The notes under the pieces were generated by a model that ran no database searches, had not been told where the DNA came from, and worked only from the letters and a program-made list of their open reading frames with translations. Of a stretch of 64,000 nucleotides of DNA, positions 21,727 to 33,342 are shown piece after piece; the stretch's first letter is position 1, and each line of letters begins with the position of its first letter. The translations under genes were made by a program, and so were the position numbers. The DNA is taken from assembly GCA_951406725.2 (NCBI GenBank), contig OX597816.1, forward strand, positions 95,604,001 to 95,668,000. The letters are read 5' to 3'. The stretch comes from Octopus vulgaris. Lineage: Eukaryota.

Positions 21727-23157
21727 TAATAAATATATTTATATTTTTCCTTTACGGTTTAATATTGCAACAAGCTGATTTTCATTAATTTGTGTGTGTG
21801 TGTGTGTGTGTGTGCATATATATATAATTATATATATATATAGACACACGCAAACATTAATAAAAATCCTCTCCTTGTTATTTAACAGAGTGACTAAGAA
21901 TATAGGAGAAGAGTAGATAAAACATTATGACGATCTTATACTTTTCAAGGACATTAACAGTGAAAATGAACTTTAAACAGGAAACAAAGCAAGTCAGATT
22001 TATTCCGCTGGCAGCTTCTATGCTAAAGAAAAACGGGATTATCGGGGAATTATATTGATTATAGATATGCTAAACTACTACTACTACTCATGACCAACAC
22101 TACCCACAACCACCTCCGGCGCACAAAATACTGTTGAAATTGTTCCAAAGAGATCAGTGAAGGAGTTATTGTTTTAAACATTGAATAAGTAACTCCACAA
22201 CATCACGATACCTTCTGATTCTTTTATTTTGCAGTTCTCTCTGACATGATGGTCATTGAATCAAATGTAGAGCCGTGATCTTTATACTTATATCATACCC
22301 GAGGTACACAGGAAGGATGCAAACTCAACACCGAGAGATATTGAAACACACGTCAACTTTATAGTACTGCTTCTGATTATATCGGTAAGTTATATTTTCT
22401 ACTTTGTGGCACTTGCTTAAAACTAGATAGAGTAGGTTAAATGTCTTAACCACAGATAGAGTACAAGTATTACTGCGGGGAACAGGATATGAACTGTTGT
22501 TCTTTCTGCTTGCTATACGATATCCTTTCATCTTGATCATCTTCAAGTTTATCGTTCTTAAAGAAGGTAAATATTTTGCTAATTATCTATGAAGATACCA
22601 GCATTTTCTTTTTTTCATTATTCTGCATATGCTCTCGCAATACATTCGATCATTAGATACTGCAAGTTAAACGCTCATACGTTATATACTGCTCAATTTG
22701 AGTATTCTGACTCACTCGTTTCTTTGCCTTTTCATCTCCTTTCGCCAACCATACTGTATCCAGTATACGGCCACTCGTCTCTCCACCCATACCTTCCTTG
22801 CAAAAATGTCTAACATCTTGAATTTCTTCTCTGCATATATGTGTTTCTCTGTGCAACCGTCGGTTTACAGTTTATCCAAGAGAAACAACCATGACGATAC
22901 TATTGATCTCGGGGTATTTCGAGGGTGATGGGTAATGGGCACCGCCCGTTTTGTAGCATGCATCCAATGAGAAATCCATAAATTAGAGATAGAAACTGAA
23001 TTTTGGCATGGAGCCATTCTTCCATCATATTCTAGTAACTATTGAGAGAAAAATGTTTTTGTTAGCCTCAAAACATTGTAACCGTTGACAGAACTTCAAC
23101 GCTACGTTGGCTCTCTAACTCATTTATCCAGTCCGAACCGAGCACGTATACTTCTAT

Positions 23158-23205
<48 letters not shown>

Positions 23206-23936
23206 AAACTTCCATATATATGTGTACGTATTTACATAAGCATACATATACATACATACACGTATACATATATGTTCGAATGACACTGTTGCTACTACTA
23301 CTACTACTACTACTACTACATCTACTACTACTGCTGCTGCTACAGTTACTGCTTCTGCTTCTACTGCTGCGGCTGCTGCACTACCAACAACACCAGCACC
23401 AACATAAGTGTTCCACTTTGTCATCAACACTGTATGTCACCGGCATCATCTCCTCAATACCGTTTATATAGCAACAACCTATATCGTAATATTAAATACA
23501 ATACTCACCGTAATCATTATACATCTAGTGTCATAATTACAACCAAAGCTACATGCATATATAACAAATATAACACATGAAATATGATTATTCTAATCGG
23601 AATAAAGACATATCGACATATGTCCACATAGCTTGATATTACACGCTGGTCAGTTGGTCACAGATGCTGGATTATGACTAATCTATTGCACTCTACATAC
23701 GTGAAACACTATTCCATACATTTTCATATTTTGGACTGACCTGCTTATATACATACACACATACACACATTTATACACGCATTCGTATAGAAATAGTATA
23801 TGCATATACGTTTGCGTGTGTGTGTTTATATATATATGTACTCATATATGTGTATATAAATATATGTACCAAGATAGATAGGTAAATAGATAGATAGACA
23901 GATAATTAGATAGAGAGATAGATAGATAGATAGATA

Positions 23937-24452
23937 AGTTTCTTTATTGGCCGCACAGGGGCACACAGATGGGACAAATTACAAGGTAGAGCTTTTCTTT
24001 TGGGGGATGAAAAAAACAAAAAACAAAAAACAAAACAAAAAAAAGTGGCGTAGGTTTTCGATCAAAAGGGATCGTAAAAGGGAAAAAAAGAAAAAAAAAA
24101 AGAAAAAAGGAAAGGGAACAAAAGAAAAGAAAAATGAAAAAAGAAGAAAAAAGAGGAAAAAAAGGGGAAGAGGAAAAAACGATCAATAGGTATCGTGTAT
24201 CACAGTGTCATGATGTATTGTGTAAAGGGGAAAGCAGATAAGGTGTATCCGTGGGAAGAAAAGCCTACGAAAAAGACCACGGTAACCTCGGTCAATATTG
24301 TTATATGTTACCACATTTGTTTGCTTGTGGGTAACCCTCTGTTTTCAGTTTCTGGGTTCATAGGATTATGCTCAAGGTGGCTTCGTCATTCATACGTGCC
24401 ATCCTTGCTACATTCACCCATCTTTTTTTAAAGCATTCGCTAGACAAAACTT
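23937..24452 (-). mobile_element. 3' end of a LINE (probably Tx1/L1 clade) inserted in (GATA)n
   Basis: Minus strand ends an ORF (VLSSECFKKRWVNVARMARMNDEATLSIIL*), followed by a T-rich 3' UTR, AATAAA and (TATC)n. Confidence 0.55.
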
Positions 24453-24489
24453 GAAAGATAGATAGATAATTAGACAGATAAATGAAGAG

Positions 24490-24888
<399 letters not shown>

Positions 24889-24931
24889 TGTATATATGTG
24901 TGTACACTATATATGTATATACATATATATA

Positions 24932-25035
24932 TAGTTGGAGTTTACAAAAAAAAAAAAAAAAAAAGAAAAATGAAGACGGGTGTGTAAACAACAAACAGAT
25001 GTATTTATTTAACACTCGGGAAGTGAGAAACTTTG
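24932..25035 (-). repeat. Short dispersed repeat, probable Penelope-type terminal tail (copy on plus at 32380-32487)
   Basis: Reverse complement of 32395-32487 (CACTTCCCGAG.GT.A.A.TAATACATCT.TTTGTTGT...GTCTTC...TTTTGTAAA). Confidence 0.6.
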
Positions 25036-25047
25036 TATGTATGTATG

Positions 25048-25123
<76 letters not shown>

Positions 25124-25129
25124 CGTACA

Positions 25130-25163
<34 letters not shown>

Positions 25164-25238
25164 CATATCTTGCAAACAACTTGCACATGCAAGTGCTACA
25201 AGTTAAAAGCTCCGTTTATCGGAAGCTAGGAAGTGTAT

Positions 25239-25328
25239 GGGGTCATCAGGGGAAAATGCGCGTCGTTTCGGGGCCTACCTCTCGACGGCATCAATGCGCA
25301 CCGGCCCCCCTCACTGATATGAAGCCCC
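25239..25328 (-). ncRNA. Candidate permuted/pseudoknotted hammerhead ribozyme in HERO 3' UTR, copy 1
   Basis: Minus: GGGG-CTTCA TATCAG TGAGG-GGGGCC-GGTGCGC-ATTGAT-GCCG-TC-GAGAG-GTA-GGCCCC-GAAA-CGAC-GCGCATT-TTCCC-CTGATGA-CCCC. Core intact; single mismatches in stems I, III and the inserted hairpin. Confidence 0.55.
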
Positions 25329-27096
25329 GCTTGCTAGATCAGCTGGTTATGAAGAACTCAATATACTTCTAGCCATCGCTCATCGTCTCTTTTTAACCAA
25401 ATCCAGTGGCTAGCCTTCTCCACTGTAGATTGGATATCAGTCATGGTGGTATTGACTTTACGATGAGTTAGGCCTAACGTCGTCTTACGCTGTGTCCTAC
25501 AAACCCTCTACATCCGACTTCGATAGGAAAATGTTCCGCTTTCCAGCCTGCGTCTTCACATTCCTCGAGGAGGTTTTCATAACGGTTTAATTTTCGAGCT
25601 CGAGCGGCGTCCATATTAACTTCGTGAGGAGCCGTTATCTCGACTATATTTACAACTTTCTTTCTTTCACACCACATCAAAATATCAGTTTTTCCGAAAC
25701 TAGGATGGGAAAGAAAACCTGGCACCCAGGTAAATCTGCAGTTACCTCCCAATAGCCGTTCCACTTTTCATTTTTCTCAGGAAGTTTCTTGGTCTTCTTC
25801 TTGAAACGGATCTGCTGACCTGGTCGCACGAAGGTAATGAACTCTCTTGATGGTACTTTTAACGATTTTTTCTGTGTTGTTGAGATGAATTTGGTTCTTT
25901 ATAGCATTGAAGATAACCTTAAGGACCGAGTTGTGCCTCCATGTGTACCTGTTCAATGCTAATGAACAGTTGGAAATAATATGTTTTAGTGTACCGACCT
26001 TTCCACATTTGAAGCTGTCATTCTCTAAGACGTTCCATCTTACTAGATTCGTAGGTGATGGCAAAACATCATAAGATGAACGAATCAGGAAACTCAGCCG
26101 AGATGTCGTCCACTTCCACATCTCATCCCAACTTATCTTCCTCTCCTCTCAACAACATGTTTTTCCCATCTCGTCATCTGACCTTGATGAACACATCGGA
26201 TCAAATGAAGCTCTTTTCTCTCTGCTTCTCTTGTTTTGACGCTGTTGCTAACAACAGATCTGCGTTCACACGGCATCATGCTTGCAAACGGTCTGAACTG
26301 ATCTGCGCCCGAACCAAATTCTTTCCGATGGTTCTGCGTTGCTCCCACCATATCTCTGTGTATAAGAGAAGACAAGATGTTGTCAGTTTCTGCTTCTGCT
26401 TTCCATTTCCTGGCTGTTTTCACCTCTGGTGGGTTACGCCTGATTTCCATATCCTTCGATTCTCTCAGCATCATGACCGTCCGTATCTTTCCCAACTTAT
26501 ATATTTCGACTATTGATGCTATTGGTAACTGCAACGAACCTCTTTTACGATAAAGAGCTGAGCTGTTCAACATACGAGGTAGACCTAGCCACTTTCTAAT
26601 GAACACATTACATTTTTGTTCAATCTTTTCAACTCGTGACAATGCTACTTCGTATATTAAAAGTGGCCATGCAAGTCGCGGGTACAAGCCGAACTGCAAG
26701 CACCAAATTTTATATTTACCTGGTAACTTCGAAACATCAATCGCTGATAACCCAGCCTCGGCCTGTTTCATCATTTCAATCCCACGACTTCTGTCTGACA
26801 ATGTTCCAGCGTGTACTCGTCCCAAGCTCTTGACGGGCTCTTCCTTGACTGTTGGAATGCTTTCTTCAGATATTCGAAATTTAAATTCTTTCTGCACTCC
26901 CTTAACAAATGTCAGACTACGCGACTTTTTTGCTCTAAATCGCATCCTTGACCACCTTACAATCTCAAAAGGGCATTCTGCATGATTTGTTTATCTGTAG
27001 CTAGAAGTGTCACGTCATCCATGAAGGCTTTCTTAGGCGATTGTACATGGGCGATTTGTTCCGAAAAATCTACACCTTTCAAAATCAACTCCATGA

Positions 27097-29262
27097 CTAA
27101 GATAAACCACGTGACAGATATTGTATAATAATGTTCGTCCTTCGGTTCGAAGATGACCAACTGACATCATCTGATGGAACTGGCACCATGAGACCGGAGG
27201 TGGCTGGTGAGGCCAATCCGGGCAAGGAAGCCCCTCCCACAGGTGGGGCAGAAGTGGGTAGGGGCCGTGCTACTGGTGCAGGCGGCTCTGGCTTTACGCA
27301 TCTGACGTTTCTGATCCGCTGACCGAATCCGTCCCTCCTCGGCTGTCCCTGCTCCCACGTCTCTGTTCTGATGGAGAAGTCTTTGAGAGAGACCTTGAGA
27401 CTATCCTTGTAGCGCTTCTTCTGCCCTCCGACTTTGCGCCTGCCCTGGCCGAGTTCACCGTAGAAGACCTGTTTTGGGATGCGAGTGTCGGACATGCGGG
27501 AGACGTGGCCCGCCCATCTCAGCTGGGCCTTGCGCATGATTGTGATGGTGCTAGGGAGATCTGCCTGCTTCAGAACTTCCGTGTCTGGGACTTTGTCCTG
27601 CCAGCGGATGTGAAGGAGGTTCCGAAGACACCTGAGATGGAAGTGGTTTATCTGGCGCTCGTGCCTTCGGTAAGCAGTCCACGTCTCGCAGCCGTATAGT
27701 AGGGTGGTAAGCACGACTGCCCGGTAGACTTTCAGCTTGGTGTTGAGGCTGATTCCTCTCCGCTCCCAGACTTTCTTTCGCAGTCTCCCAAACGCGCTGC
27801 TTGCCTTGGAGATTCTGTTGATGGTTTCAGCATCTATGTTGGCATTGCAGGAGAGAGTGCTACCCAGGTAGGTGAAGTTTTCCACCACTCGTAGGATCCG
27901 TCCGTTCACCCTTATCTGAGGCTCATGGTATTGTTTGCCGGGGGCTGGCTGAAACATCACTTCGGTTTTCTTGGCACTGATGGTGAGACCGAAGTTGTCA
28001 CAGGCTGATGAGAACCTGTCCATCTCGAGCTGCATCATCTGCTCATCGATTGTACAGCCAGCAGCAATGCCAACCTCCAATCGGTGCCAATTTGTTGTAA
28101 AATTTCCAGTTGTAAACCTCATTTCGAAACTGTCATAGTACATCCTCATTATTTTGATCACTTTGTCAGGAATGTGGAAGTGGTCCATGGCTGTTATTAG
28201 TAATTTGTGTGGCACTGAACCATACGCGTTAGCTAGGTCGAGCCATACCACGTTCAGACTTTTCTTGTTCTGTTTGGCATCCTGGATCGCTTTCCAAATC
28301 GAAAAACAGTGTTCAACGCATCCAGGGATCCCGGGGATTCCGGCCTTTTGAACAGATTCATCAACATATCCGTTACTCCGTAAATATGCCACTGTTCTCC
28401 TCGACAGAATTCCCATAAAGATCTTGCCTTCCACATTCAATAAGGATATCGGCCTAAACTGTTTTATGGTCTTTGCATTGGCCTCTTTCGGCAGGTATAT
28501 ACCTTCTGCCTTACACCAATCCTCTACTATAGTCTCCTCGCGCCACAGTTGTCGGATTAGGACGAAAAGCTTCTTTCGCAGACGATTGCAGTACTTGTAG
28601 ACTTTATATGAGACGCCATCACCTCCTGGGGCACTCTTTGTTCTAGCTTTTCTTACGAAGTCATTCACCTCTCTCTCCCTGATGTCCCCTATCTGGAATT
28701 CGATATCAGGTTCTGAGAGATGATTTAACCCATGTAGAGGTGGCAGCGGCTGGTTACGGTGCGGATCGCTGTAGGTTTCCTTGATATGAGCATCCAATTC
28801 TTCTTTAGTGCACGATAAAGTACCACTCTTCGGTTCAGTGAACAGATTCTTAGTAAACCCGTACGGGTCCTTCAGAAACTGCCCCCGAGTCCTTTTACTT
28901 TCTTTTCGACGCTCATATCGGCGGATATGTCGTTGCACATAACGACATTTCCTCTTCAAATCGTTATACAGCAACGCAAGGCCACGTTTCTCATCTAGTG
29001 CAGCACATGTCCATCGCTTTTTTAAGTTTGACTTTTCCTTCCTCAACTGCTGCATTTTTCTGATCCTCCTGCTTGGTCCACACTTTCCTTTCTCTAGTCG
29101 GATATTCTCTTTTATAACGAATAAATCTTTTCCTATATCGTATATTGAGCTTGATAATTTTCCCAGTTTCTCCACTGTAGAGCCTGTCATTTTATAAAGA
29201 GCCCGACAAACCTTGTTTTCAAACTCTTTATATTTCACTTTCTCATTAGCAGCAGGCCACAA
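27097..29262 (-). pseudogene. Chimeric 721-aa ORF: HERO N-terminus/RT motifs up to B fused in frame to RTE RT C-terminus; lacks the catalytic YxDD
   Basis: HERO sequence ends at ...LEVGIAAGCTI and continues as DEQMMQLEMDRFSSACDNFGLTIS...FTYLGS...LRWAGHV...RIPKQVFYGEL (RTE). Confidence 0.85.
27126..28048 (-). mobile_element. 5'-truncated RTE-clade LINE, 923 bp, 6-bp TSD ATTGTA
   Basis: ATTGTA at 27120-27125 and 28049-28054; removing the insert restores HERO AGCTISVTW. RTE thumb motifs, C-terminal CPTCGRGFLARIGLTSHLRSH, 3' end GTCATCTTCGAACCGAAGGACGAAC plus ATT tail. Confidence 0.92.
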
Positions 29263-29687
29263 AACCCTCGGTTTCCTCTGAGTATTATCCGATGCACCAG
29301 TTTCATGACTTGTAGTTTCATCACGTGAAGAGTTCTCTGCTTTAGCATTTATCGATCCGCTGTGGTTTGAGTCCGGAGATGATTTGCCACGTGTTTTACG
29401 ATCTGACGATCCACACTGCTCTGTCCTCTCTCACAAGTCTTTCCCTGATGTATCTTCAAGCCTCTCTCAGTTGCAAAGGTTCTATAGCACAGCTTGCATC
29501 CAAAGTTGTTTGCATTTCGTTCGCTGTTCGAATTAATAATCATGTTCGTTTCCAAGGTCATTCCCGTGCAGACTGGGTTTGATTGATTCTCGACTTTCCC
29601 CTCTCGGCCAATCGTGGGGCTGTCATTTCCTGTTATTTCTGTTACAATAAAATACAGAGGCGAGGATCGTAAGTCCGCAGCCTCCGC

Positions 29688-29802
29688 CAGTCTTTCCTGT
29701 TGTCGATAGTCTTTCCTATTGTCCGCTGGTCTTTCCGAGCAGTCCTCTTGTCTTTCCAAGATGCCTAACCGTCTTTCCGGTTTGTCAGTGGTTACCTACC
29801 AC
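29688..29802 (-). promoter_or_regulatory. Array of five GAAAGA-loop hairpins (plus a sixth unrelated hairpin) in the HERO 5' region
   Basis: Minus strand: AACCG-GAAAGA-CGGTT, TCTTG-GAAAGA-CAAGA, GCTCG-GAAAGA-CCAGC, ATAG-GAAAGA-CTAT, CAG-GAAAGA-CTG at ~20-nt spacing; GTGGT-AGGTA-ACCAC upstream. Confidence 0.75.
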
Positions 29803-29815
29803 AAGGTCTTAGATG

Positions 29816-30713
29816 TCTTGCAAACAACTTGCACATGCAAGTGCTACCAGTTAAAAGCTCCGTTTATCGGAAGCTAGGAAGTGTATGGGGTCATCAGGAG
29901 AGAATGCGCGCCGTTTCGGTGCCTACCTCTCGACGGCATCAATGCGCACCGGCCCCCCTCACTGATATGAGGCCCCGCTTGCTAGATCAGCTGGTTATGA
30001 AGAACTCAATATACTTCTAACCATCGCTCATCGTCTCTTTTTAACCAAATCCAGTGGCTAGCCTTCTCCACTGTAGATTGGATATCAGCCATGGTGGTAT
30101 TGACTTTACGATGAGTTAGGCCTAACGATAACAACAGTCGTCTCACGCTGTGTCCTACAAACCCTCTACATCCTACTTCGATAGGAAAATGTTCCGCTTT
30201 CCAGCCTGCGTCTTCACATTCCTCGAGGAGGTTTTCATAACGGTTTAATTTTCGAGCTCGAGCGGCGTCCATATTAACTTCGTGAGGAACCGTTAGCTCG
30301 ATTATATTTACAACTTTCTTTCTTTCACACCACATCAAAATATCTGGTTTTCCGAAAGTGGGATGGGAAAGAAAACCTGGCACCAGGTAAATCTGCTGTT
30401 ACCTCCCAATAGCCGTTCCACTTTTCATTTTTCTCAGGAAGTTTCTTGGTCTTCTTCTTGAAACGGATCTGCTGACCTGGTCGCACGAAGGTAATGAACT
30501 CTCTTGATGGTACTTTTAACGATTTTTTCTCAGTGTTGTTGAGATGAATTTGGTTCTTTATAGCATTGAAGATAACCTTAAGGACCAAGTTGTGCCTCCA
30601 TGTGTACCTGTTCAATGCTAATGAACAGTTGGAAAGAATATGTTTTAGTGTACCGACCTTTCCACATTTGCAGCTGTCATTCTCTAAGATGTTCCATCTT
30701 ACTAGATTCGTAG
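29816..30713 (-). mobile_element. Second HERO 3' end (knuckle + RLE + 3' UTR) fused head-to-tail to the 5' end of the full copy
   Basis: Direct repeat of 25168-26054 with scattered substitutions and a ~12-bp indel. ORF 30006-30383 KPDILMW...IELTVPHE...EVGCRGF...HWIWLKR. Confidence 0.92.
29887..29976 (-). ncRNA. Candidate permuted/pseudoknotted hammerhead ribozyme in HERO 3' UTR, copy 2
   Basis: Minus: GGGG-CCTCA TATCAG TGAGG-GGGGCC-GGTGCGC-ATTGAT-GCCG-TC-GAGAG-GTA-GGCACC-GAAA-CGGC-GCGCATT-CTCTC-CTGATGA-CCCC. Predicted cut after GUC (29932|29931); one mismatch in stem II. Confidence 0.6.
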
Positions 30714-30739
30714 TATATATACAGACATACATCACACAC

Positions 30740-31024
30740 ATCGTATACGACAGATGACGACAGATGACGCTTCCGCAATTTCTTTCTGAACAAACAAGAC
30801 AGATAATTTGTTTACATTAGTCAAAACATTTGTGCTGTTCATTCCTTCCATAAAATCGGCATTACCTGTACAGGTGCATCTGATGCCATGCATCTGTGCC
30901 ATGCATCTGATATCGAAGTGAGCGCAGAGCAACTGAAGAAAATGCAGTCTCCGACCCGCGAATCGAAACTGCGATCTTGCAATCCTATGTGCAACATACG
31001 AATCACTAGGTCACGCATCCTCAC
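30740..31024 (-). mobile_element. Decayed tRNA-derived SINE
   Basis: Minus head GTGAGGATGCGTGACCTAGTGATT...GTTTCGATTCGCGGG with A/B-box-like spacing; similar head to 33653, 42213 and 57093. Confidence 0.55.
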
Positions 31025-31923
31025 TAATACATACATTCACACACATACACAAATACATACACACATACATACATACAGACATAGATACACATACATACGT
31101 ACATATACCATATACACACATATATTTATACGTGTATGTATTGTATCAAAGAAACAATGAATATTCTATTCAGTTTCTTTCACATACCCCAGCTACCTAT
31201 CATCTCCGTCCACTGCTGTCACCAAACTGGCTCTACAATTTGTTATTTTCTTCTTTGCTCTTCTAATCCTTTCTGTAAGTGCGTGTGCATCAAACGTAGC
31301 CACTTCATCCATAGTTCCTCCTTCCGACAGCCCGTCCACCTGATCGGGTACCCTACAAGCTTTTATGCACTTGCATACTCAACAATAAAACCTTCCGGCT
31401 TGCTCTTGCCATTGAATGTGTTTCATTAATACCCGTATTTCTACACCCACGCTCTCAGTTTCTCCTATACGGTTGTTCACACTAAACACGTAACGATTAC
31501 TCGCACACACCAAGATCCCACATCAATAAACACCACCACTGTACTTCCTCATTTCCCCACGTCTGCACATAACATTTTAAAACATAAACTATGATACATA
31601 CAGCTACACACCCTCCTATTCTTCCTTTCTTAAACTCATTTTGTAGAACAGCATGCACATTTGATATTTAACACTACGATTCCCTCTTTTTCATATATAT
31701 ATATAATGACTATTTCTCTTTTATCACTCACGCTAATCTGTCTTTCATTTCTTCTGACGAGGAAACTTCGAAATGTATGACAGTTTCTTTTTCTATTGCA
31801 ATATTAAGCTAACACCAGTTTTATCAGATATCATTCTTCCCGGGTTATTTTTTCTAATGTTTATTGCATCTACCCCATGATTGTATATATTTGTGTATGT
31901 ATGTATATATATATATATATATA

Positions 31924-32288
31924 CTCTTTTACTCTTTTACTCTTTTACTTGTTTCAGTCATTTGACTGCGGCCATGCTGGAGCACCACCTTTTAGTACTT
32001 ATTCTATCGGTCTCTTTTTGCCAAACCGCTAAGTGACGGGGACGTAAACACACCAGCATCGATTGTCAAGCAATGCTAGGGGGACAAACACAGACACACA
32101 AACACACACACATATACATATATATACATATATACGACAGGCTTCTTTCAGTTTCCGTCTACCAAATCCACTCACAAGGCATTGGTCGGCCCGGGGCTAT
32201 AGCAGAAGACACTTGCCCAAGATGCCACGCAGTGGGACTGAACCCGCAACCGTGTGGTTGGTTAGCAAGCTACTTACCACACAGCCAT
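31924..32288 (-). mobile_element. SINE family A
   Basis: Reverse complement of 2727-3087, with (CTCTTTTA)n tail. Confidence 0.85.
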
Positions 32289-32302
32289 ACAAGCTACATA
32301 CA

Positions 32303-32364
<62 letters not shown>

Positions 32365-32379
32365 TATATATATGCAGGC

Positions 32380-32486
32380 ATTCGAAACGTTAAAGACTTT
32401 TTCACTTCCCGAGCGTAATACTAATACATCTATTTGTTGTCTACATCACCTGTCTTCGCCTTTTGTTTTTTTTTTGTAAATTCTCC

Positions 32487-32487
<1 letters not shown>
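32380..32487 (+). repeat. Probable Penelope-type terminal tail beginning at a hammerhead half-core (CGAAACGTTA)
   Basis: Same family as 24932-25035. Starts with C-GAAA-CG-TT, the palindromic stem III seen in minimal hammerheads; the CUGANGA half is missing. Confidence 0.5.
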
Positions 32488-32522
<35 letters not shown>

Positions 32523-33342
32523 AGAGAGAGAGAGAGAAAGAGAGGTGATAGTGTTGATGATGATGATGATGATAGTATTAGTAACGAACTACACAAAATG
32601 TACCCAAGATGCTATGTAGAATATCATTATATACATTCAGCTAATGCCTTCTGCTGTTACTTCAAATTTCACGAATGTTTGATCAAACTATGTTTGTCTA
32701 CAACGAAAAGTTGCTAATCATTATAAACCAACACAGACGTTTGACTGATAGCACATTTATTAAACTTAATTTAACGGTAGAAAGCATCGCACGAATACAC
32801 ACATACACACACTTTTACTTACATATAATAGTAGTGCTAGAAATGAATAATTCGTCGGTATAACAAAGAATATTATGTCATTAGAAAGACTCAATTAAAC
32901 AGAAAATATTTTAAATTATAGACAGTTTTACTTATCTTATATATAAATTTCCATTAGATATGACTTCACATCTACTGAAATGATATGCAGTATATGTGTG
33001 TTTCTTTTAATGTACAAGCCCGAAAGTATTTTCCTCTATGTAATTCAGTTTTTAAATAAATTATCTATATTTACATCCACTAAAACACAAGCGCGCGTGC
33101 ACACACGCACACACACACACACACATACACACACACACACTCACACACACATAAACATGCAGGCTGATTTGTCATTTCGATATTGTACCTTCTTCATTAC
33201 AACGAGGCATCACATTGTATTAGGGCTGTTCAAGAAACGAACTGTCCCAGTATAATTTTATACAAAACTAAGGCTAAATTGAAATAAAATAAGAAATTTC
33301 ATTAGTTGTGTTGTTTCATGGACGGACGTATTTACACACGAC

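Follow-up and report, generated by a model that had tools for sequence, protein, structure and literature searches.

The window analysed here, a 64,000 nt stretch of the Octopus vulgaris genome (contig OX597816.1, positions 95,604,001–95,668,000), contains a HERO-type retrotransposon that probably multiplies by way of a unit-length RNA circle. As judged from genomic sequence, its RNA would cleave itself at two copies of a hammerhead-like motif and be ligated into a 3.7 kb circle, on which target-primed reverse transcription (TPRT) would start internally and run for more than one lap. By definition, long interspersed nuclear elements (LINEs) have no terminal repeats and copy a linear RNA beginning at its 3′ end; a life cycle in which RNA is copied as a ring is known from Penelope elements and retrozymes, and is unexpected in a LINE.

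Terminal repeats and the ends of copies

The element lies on the minus strand, and its terminal direct repeats (25168–26054 and 29816–30713) differ by 22 substitutions and 3 indels (10, 1 and 2 nt) in about 890 nt, or 95.9 % identity over 905 columns by BLAST; the repeats of about 0.9 kb claimed in the initial annotation are thus real. The upstream repeat begins within the open reading frame (ORF), in the zinc-knuckle region, and adjoins position 29815 with no spacer, as had been stated, although 29815/29816 is not a true joint: it is the end point of the window copy only, and other copies end 1–13 nt further, within CATCTAAGACCTT sequence. Two GCCGUC sites, at which the cuts are predicted, end at 29932 and 25284, and their spacing is 4648 nt rather than 3719 nt because of a later LINE insert of 923 nt with its 6 nt duplication TACAAT (4648−929=3719), both distances being as first given. 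The insert, which we presume from the initial annotation and its C-terminal motif to be of the RTE type, occupies unit positions 1768–2690; together with frameshifts it disrupts an ORF that is open for 1112 codons in young copies. The features of the locus are as follows.

25168–26054, minus strand: downstream (3′) terminal repeat, with ORF C-terminus, 3′ untranslated region (UTR), ribozyme-like motif and insertion 3′ end
29816–30713, minus strand: upstream repeat, made up of 900 nt from the 3′ part of the element and beginning within the ORF, interpreted as a second lap of the reverse transcriptase (RT)
25358–29546, minus strand: single ORF with N-terminal zinc finger, RT, CCHC knuckle and PD..D/ExK-type endonuclease (domain motifs other than RT identified by eye)
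27126–28048, minus strand: later 5′-truncated insert of another LINE, with TACAAT duplicated at 28049–28054 and 27120–27125
29874–29985, minus strand: upstream copy of the rearranged hammerhead-like motif, with the cut predicted between 29932 and 29931 and a single decay substitution in stem II
25226–25337, minus strand: downstream motif copy, predicted cut between 25284 and 25283; stems I and III are decayed and it no longer scores in the motif scan
29803–29815, minus strand: priming zone (r1–r13), in which insertions of the family end variably, often with target microhomology
29684–29783, minus strand: five short GAAAGA-loop hairpins before the ORF
25030–25167, strand not applicable: TA/TACA microsatellite flank at the insertion 3′ end
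30714–30740, strand not applicable: TA/CA-rich flank at the insertion 5′ end

Unit positions r1–r3737 follow one natural young copy (L037:4996–8732), in which the ORF is r209–3547 and the predicted cut falls after r3621; r1 is the base after GCAAGA and equals window position 29815 on the minus strand. We use 'passage' for the point where the 3′ end of one unit runs into the 5′ start of the next. The 2.8 Gb host genome holds 930 exact, dispersed matches to the 29 nt 3′ end and 22 exact matches to a 26 nt pattern spanning the passage, so the junction, for which recurrence had been proposed as a check, is not unique to this locus. Thirty-one loci were fetched; with one solo copy bearing a 13 nt tail and one segmental duplicate removed, the 29 that remain and the window form a set of 30 two-repeat loci, in which 21–1971 nt of upstream 3′ sequence precede the passage at 80–100 % identity. 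Since the passage query favoured copies that carry a passage, a second survey used only the 5′ region (of 104 candidates, 40 were scored and 30 fetched): 24 of the 30 continue into the previous unit, one by just 3 nt, and the other six begin at r39, 43, 46, 52, 63 and 81. The family has no fixed 5′ end.

Among 90 solo copies taken in genome order (one further match, itself a passage, was excluded) the 3′ end extends 1–9 nt into the start sequence with a peak at 3, and run-ons of at least 6 nt occur in 18, against 1.35 expected from flank composition. Because insertions end 1–13 nt inside the 5′ start, the passage is no true joint and the template is continuous past the priming point. Visible target-site duplications (TSDs) often overlap the run-on bases (L066, L067), and priming seems to be aided by pairing between target and RNA. 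The idea that copy ends might be freely permuted does not hold, the 3′ ends being fixed within about 13 nt, some 120 nt downstream of the cut; the TA/TACA-rich outer flanks noted earlier are present at the window locus but are not a rule of the family, with microsatellite 3′ flanks in 14 of the 90 copies. Nor did we find a convincing single TSD around the whole window element, where a 9 nt match between the outer flanks sits in simple repeat and is a weak candidate only, and around 20 two-repeat loci a TSD search brought up no convincing case except within simple repeats. No multimer arrays were found in a search that checked one cluster, over 23 kb of its length; that cluster is a host duplication.

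Several other arrangements were seen among the copies. A cluster of truncated copies with common start points (L393–L395) is a host tandem duplication, three two-repeat copies (L053, L058 and L362) start at about r3716–3717, in a palindromic hairpin near the 3′ end, and in one young copy (L391/L392) r2536–3482 is fused to r1525–3737 by a non-standard template switch. Internally deleted derivatives with units of about 0.6–1.45 kb (L032, L046, L047, L050, L055, L058, L068 and L355) keep the ribozyme region and are mostly two-repeat; several join about r750 to about r3340, and they resemble retrozyme-like passengers.

A hammerhead-like motif and its predicted cut

The predicted cut lies within a putative hammerhead-like fold of undescribed arrangement, with its blocks in the order S-G-C. 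The strands run X 5′, hairpin Y, stem II 5′, Z, stem III and H up to the cut, and then stem I 5′, linker, stem II 3′, GAAA, stem III, Z, stem I 3′, CUGAnGA and X 3′, such that the link from CUGAnGA to stem II is opened by two extra helices (X and Y). Relatives were taken from metagenome contigs (457 detected in the scan, 80 kept), of which 43 have a UTR of at least 120 nt after the ORF. The architecture fits 28 of these 43, some of them near-duplicates, as well as the host's own copy, and it fits none of 220 shuffles and none of 44 reverse strands; scans of the 80 whole loci, in which the core letters are required, gave 36 sense and no antisense matches. Of 24 relatives with at least 450 nt before the ORF, eight have the motif upstream as well, seven of them directly after an ORF C-terminus, although such repeat layouts are only supporting evidence because metagenome contigs can collapse repeats.

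With near-duplicates removed, 30 motifs remain at a median identity of 49 %. All parts of a hammerhead core (CUGAnGA, GAAA, an NUH triplet, G10.1–C11.1 and stems I–III) are found in this set, with covariation; G10.1–C11.1 is present in 29, and the cleavage triplets are GUC (11), GUU (8), GUA (7), AUA (3) and CUA (1). Hairpin Y, to which the choice of X and stem II leaves no free parameter, has at least 4 bp in 23 of the 30 against 6 of 240 slid controls (hand count). In a sequence-only alignment of the 14 motifs of similar length, 93.6 % of cells pair, against 37–50 % when slid, and over the six helices 28 of 36 pairs change on both sides, a value that none of 500 shuffles reached; these controls are biased towards the structure, because it was derived from the same sequences. 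The strand after CUGAnGA and the strand before GAAA, which would form a stem II of the SGC style, make four of four pairs in none of the 30 motifs, and the canonical SGC pairing, which fails in all 30, was rejected. In the rearranged fold A9 continues into X, and G10.1 follows on Y; the core could then stack as a four-way junction. An Rfam scan of 23000–33000 gave no ribozyme and only microsatellite noise, and free-energy folding of the motif region was no better than shuffles (z −0.28), the two pseudoknots being beyond that method. Hepatitis delta virus (HDV)-like, twister, pistol and hairpin readings, judged by eye against their consensuses, were dropped.

We also note that in alignment A2 an invariant GA stands on either side (columns 54–55 and 92–93) of the internal loop that separates stem III from helix Z, possibly as tandem sheared pairs. 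A recurrent deletion of about 20 nt, between short look-alike words, removes the 3′ arm of hairpin Y and the stem II 5′ strand in L270, L272, L276, L278, L288, L302, L304, L308, L312, L317 and L332; it marks either a subfamily or repeated RT slippage. Between the motif and the ORF, hairpins with GAAAGA-type loops like those of the window occur also in distant relatives, namely L188, L193, L194, L218, L226, L228, L239, L255 and L265, similar GGARAGAC repeats follow the ribozyme in relatives, and protein binding and cap-independent translation are candidate roles for the hairpins.

If the motif cuts, reverse transcripts that run off a cut RNA should begin at r3622, the first base after a site that had been fixed beforehand by the GUC of the initial annotation. 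A first comparison, with 11 matches at the cut and 7 and 7 at two control positions, was unconvincing as raw counts; since only 3 and 3 of the controls had foreign flanks, a test over one interval was run on copies captured by a search because their match ends in r3606–3648. Of 76 matches, 44 were excluded because they reflect internal indels or decay. Among the 32 5′ ends with foreign flanks seven fall at r3622 (P=3e-6), whereas other positions average 0.6 and none has more than 3; a further three, at r3620–3621, are compatible with the cut. Such run-off is rare, with one case in the 90 sampled copies against 80 that read through the cut, 73 of 74 examined read-through copies having no indel there. 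Of the 30 two-repeat loci none begins at the cut, and none of 25 second-lap stops lies at it (P 0.5–0.7), which does not discriminate between models.

It has to be considered whether the motif might instead be a non-catalytic fold on which the element's protein docks, the tandem layout then arising by template jumping or some other route. The motif stands where LINE proteins usually bind, the SGC-style pairing is found in no motif, and Rfam reports no hammerhead here; yet the core letters and NUH triplets are kept at 28–55 % protein identity, as is G10.1–C11.1 (29 of 30), no base is used twice by the helices, and 5′ ends accumulate at the scissile bond that is predicted, where a structural stall is not expected because the RT has already unwound every downstream partner. 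We therefore think this alternative improbable, although docking and cleavage need not be mutually exclusive. Covariation and the pile-up of 5′ ends thus speak for the ribozyme cut of the initial annotation, though in a motif that is not a classical hammerhead.

A template probably read more than once

We define a private-shared variant as one that both repeats of a locus carry and no other long copy has. In the ten least diverged loci there are 14 such variants, against at most 0.44 by chance (summed by hand), and in all 21 loci with both repeats there are 20, against an upper bound of 10.8. In the solo copies, 15–98 of which cover each site, three of four variants of the window and all five tested variants of L036 are unseen, and eight young siblings have only one recurrent one-sided difference, in a G5/G6 homopolymer. 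Private variants common to both repeats in young loci therefore point, at the level of sequence, to one template that was copied twice. The window repeats likewise are of one lineage, with private variants in common, and do not come from different subfamilies, an outcome that the initial annotation had allowed for.

These variants bear directly on the possibility that an older full copy received a second, 5′-truncated copy at its start. Upstream parts resemble solo copies in length (median 272 nt, n=30, and 325 nt, n=90; P=0.27), and L228 does combine two families, but there is no class of full copies starting at r1 (at most 1 in 30), the repeats have private variants in common, and the passage is invariant whereas ordinary 3′ ends vary over 13 nt; this explanation is largely refuted and we give it very little weight.

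The circle model, which we prefer, can be laid out in five steps. A locus with a whole ribozyme in its upstream repeat would be transcribed through both repeats; each repeat would then very probably fold as a rearranged hammerhead and cut after GUC to release a 3.7 kb RNA, whose 5′-OH and cyclic-phosphate ends would, by analogy with retrozymes, be ligated. The RT-endonuclease would nick the target and prime about 120 nt downstream of the seam, assisted by short pairing between target and RNA; the end positions are observed, and the mechanism we infer. Most cDNAs would stop early, about 1 % would run off at the cut on unligated RNA, and a few per cent would complete the lap and continue by strand displacement to yield a 1.0–1.5-mer, often with two ribozymes, products of these kinds being present in the genome. 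As the whole motif would fit into 22 of the 30 upstream repeats (hand count), the cycle could renew itself. The suggestion of the initial annotation that the RT runs more than once round a circle thus gains from the shared private variants and the recurrent passage, the circle itself being hypothetical.

A number of observations weigh against this model. The chance bound of 10.8 is dominated by old loci, in which the signal of shared variants is weak, and in L041 both private variants recur in solo copies. L034, L035 and L037 have G5 upstream and G6 downstream, with L038 reversed, an asymmetry that could mean that the two repeats were inherited separately and that is the main counter-evidence in the sequences; homopolymer slippage is common, however, since 8 of 37 solo copies also have G5. 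The seam of a circle would equal the genomic sequence, so DNA cannot show the circle directly, and the joins of L228 and L391/L392 show that jumps or second insertions do occur. In L228 (190–7262) two HERO elements of only 68 % identity follow one another head to tail, and the motif is intact in both. The architecture does not fit 15 of the 43 UTRs, two of which are cut short within the motif by the end of the contig, the others being variants or lacking it, and in 16 of the 24 contigs with room upstream of the ORF no motif was found there. The fold also breaks the rule, as given in PMC10085705, that CUGAnGA abuts stem II. Four contig sets guessed to be RNA cover the unit in 27–30 of 30 bins with no ends and no circles and were not used; a joint in them that 'goes back 3734' was discarded, being merely the natural continuation of the permuted query.

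The ends of the cut RNA would fall some 120 nt upstream from the priming zone. Clean copying past them needs either a ligated circle or a precise jump. In the latter case a linear monomer, cut by the ribozyme and never ligated, would be primed internally and the RT would jump at the cut to the 3′ end of that monomer or of a second one. Jumping would account equally well for the pile-up, the shared variants and the continuity of the template; the R2 RT does move between templates (PMC4117753), odd joins are known (L228, L391/L392) and the absence of second-lap stops at the cut is neutral. The R2 jumps described in that paper add up to 5 untemplated bases, however, whereas read-through copies are almost always free of indels at the cut, and successful jumps would have to make up about 99 % of passes (in 90 copies there are 80 read-throughs and 1 run-off). 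We regard this as unlikely, while ranking it above the other alternatives.

A little less probable again is that uncut, linear read-through transcripts of 1.x-mer loci serve as templates, with a slow ribozyme trimming some RNAs and gene conversion or rare regeneration keeping the repeats alike. That 80 of 90 copies pass the cut agrees with this, as do the slowness of type-SGC hammerheads (PMC10085705) and the G5/G6 asymmetry that recurs in three siblings. On such a scheme, though, upstream repeats and 3′ tails could only shrink, and no mapped copy combines the longest upstream part (1971 nt, L033) with the longest full-copy tail (10 nt, L034); the lack of multimer arrays in the search described above, and private variants that occur in both repeats interleaved with later decay, also speak against it.

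Relatives, known systems and implications

The element has the single ORF with RT followed by a PD-(D/E)XK endonuclease that characterizes HERO, and the window copy has a Pfam match to RVT_1. The best solved relatives of the ORF protein are R2 proteins, with L1 proteins also among them, and the RT motifs match, by eye and motif by motif, the HERO-1_BF and HEROTn rows of an alignment in the supplement of PMC7650587. The clade (HERO-1_BF, HEROTn, HERO-1_SP) is described in PMC4640811 and PMC3636483 as having this same order of RT and restriction-like endonuclease (RLE) in a single ORF and no strict target, with some microsatellite insertions, and the octopus family is likewise mostly non-specific (930 dispersed 3′ ends, 14 of 90 microsatellite flanks). 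A distant relative of about 32 % protein identity (L235:2968–9012) lies within a longer contig and has terminal repeats of 1680 nt at 99.9 % identity. In the octopus genome, diverged HERO-like copies were too decayed for the motif to be scored (0 of 8); by eye, three older, unrelated HERO-like copies (L363, L366 and L376) have worn GAAAC or CUGAnGA words after the ORF.

In the literature searched, mostly at the level of titles and abstract openings, we found no terminal repeats, 3′-UTR ribozyme or circular intermediate described for HERO, although Repbase, subscription journals and preprint supplements were outside the scope of the search and may already note the repeats; no paper linking HERO, retrotransposon and hammerhead was found, and HERO is not mentioned in the main text of a 2026 preprint on animal retrozymes.

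The closest parallel in layout is the pseudo-LTR (long terminal repeat) of Penelope-like elements, in which a full copy is preceded by a 5′-truncated copy, a hammerhead lies in the repeat and 5′ truncation is heavy (PMC8557442; for partial tandems see also PMC3846280). Judged by sequence the octopus element has this partial tandem with a hammerhead-like motif in the repeat; its only Pfam match is RVT_1, with R2 and L1 as solved relatives, whereas Penelope has a different, telomerase-related RT class, a GIY-YIG endonuclease and a different hammerhead type, and its typical inverted 5′ copies and 30–40 bp tails are absent here. Retrozymes, which are LTR elements in plants and non-LTR elements in animals, use the double hammerhead cleavage that is predicted for HERO; their monomers are ligated by RtcB in vitro, and the circles are proposed to be reverse-transcribed into tandem copies (PMC7229834). 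Retrozymes are short and non-coding with type I or III hammerheads, whereas this element is autonomous and 3.7 kb long. It thus works like a Penelope partial tandem or a retrozyme and is neither.

As to the motif, the type-SGC hammerheads of Eckert et al. (2023; PMC10085705) have the same order of site, GAAA and CUGAnGA, a short linker between stems I and II and two pseudoknots, but their block C is uninterrupted, whereas in HERO the stem II 5′ strand lies upstream of the cut and X and Y stand between A9 and G10.1. Eckert et al. take CUGAnGA to be inseparable from stem II, and their main text mentions neither HERO nor reverse transcriptase. The HERO motif thus appears to work like SGC without being a member as defined. 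R2 is also an RLE LINE whose self-cleavage site shapes its genomic 5′ junctions (PMC3774820), although it has one HDV-like ribozyme at the 5′ end, a linear RNA, a specific site and no terminal repeats; the R2 RT is capable of strand displacement (PMC4117753).

Elsewhere in the window, 2738–2927 and 32098–32287 are inverted copies, 89 % identical, of a short interspersed repeat that ends in a TA/TG microsatellite and that we take to resemble a tRNA-type short interspersed nuclear element.

For the clade at large we are evenly balanced on whether much of HERO may consist of autonomous protein-coding LINEs with a ribozyme-made RNA circle, cap-free translation and internal priming, the ribozyme being a further natural hammerhead topology with a four-way junction in place of the A9–G10.1 link. 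The motif runs counter to what has been assumed in print on how hammerheads can be rearranged, and an RNA of about 110 nt is enough to test it. With its one ORF and young intact copies, the element also offers a way to test the circle model that has been put forward for Penelope pseudo-LTRs and retrozymes. If true, an R2-like enzyme that accepts circular RNA would be of interest for RNA-only gene-insertion tools, and a LINE whose priming takes place within a circle would avoid losing its 5′ end, a standing problem of non-LTR retrotransposition.

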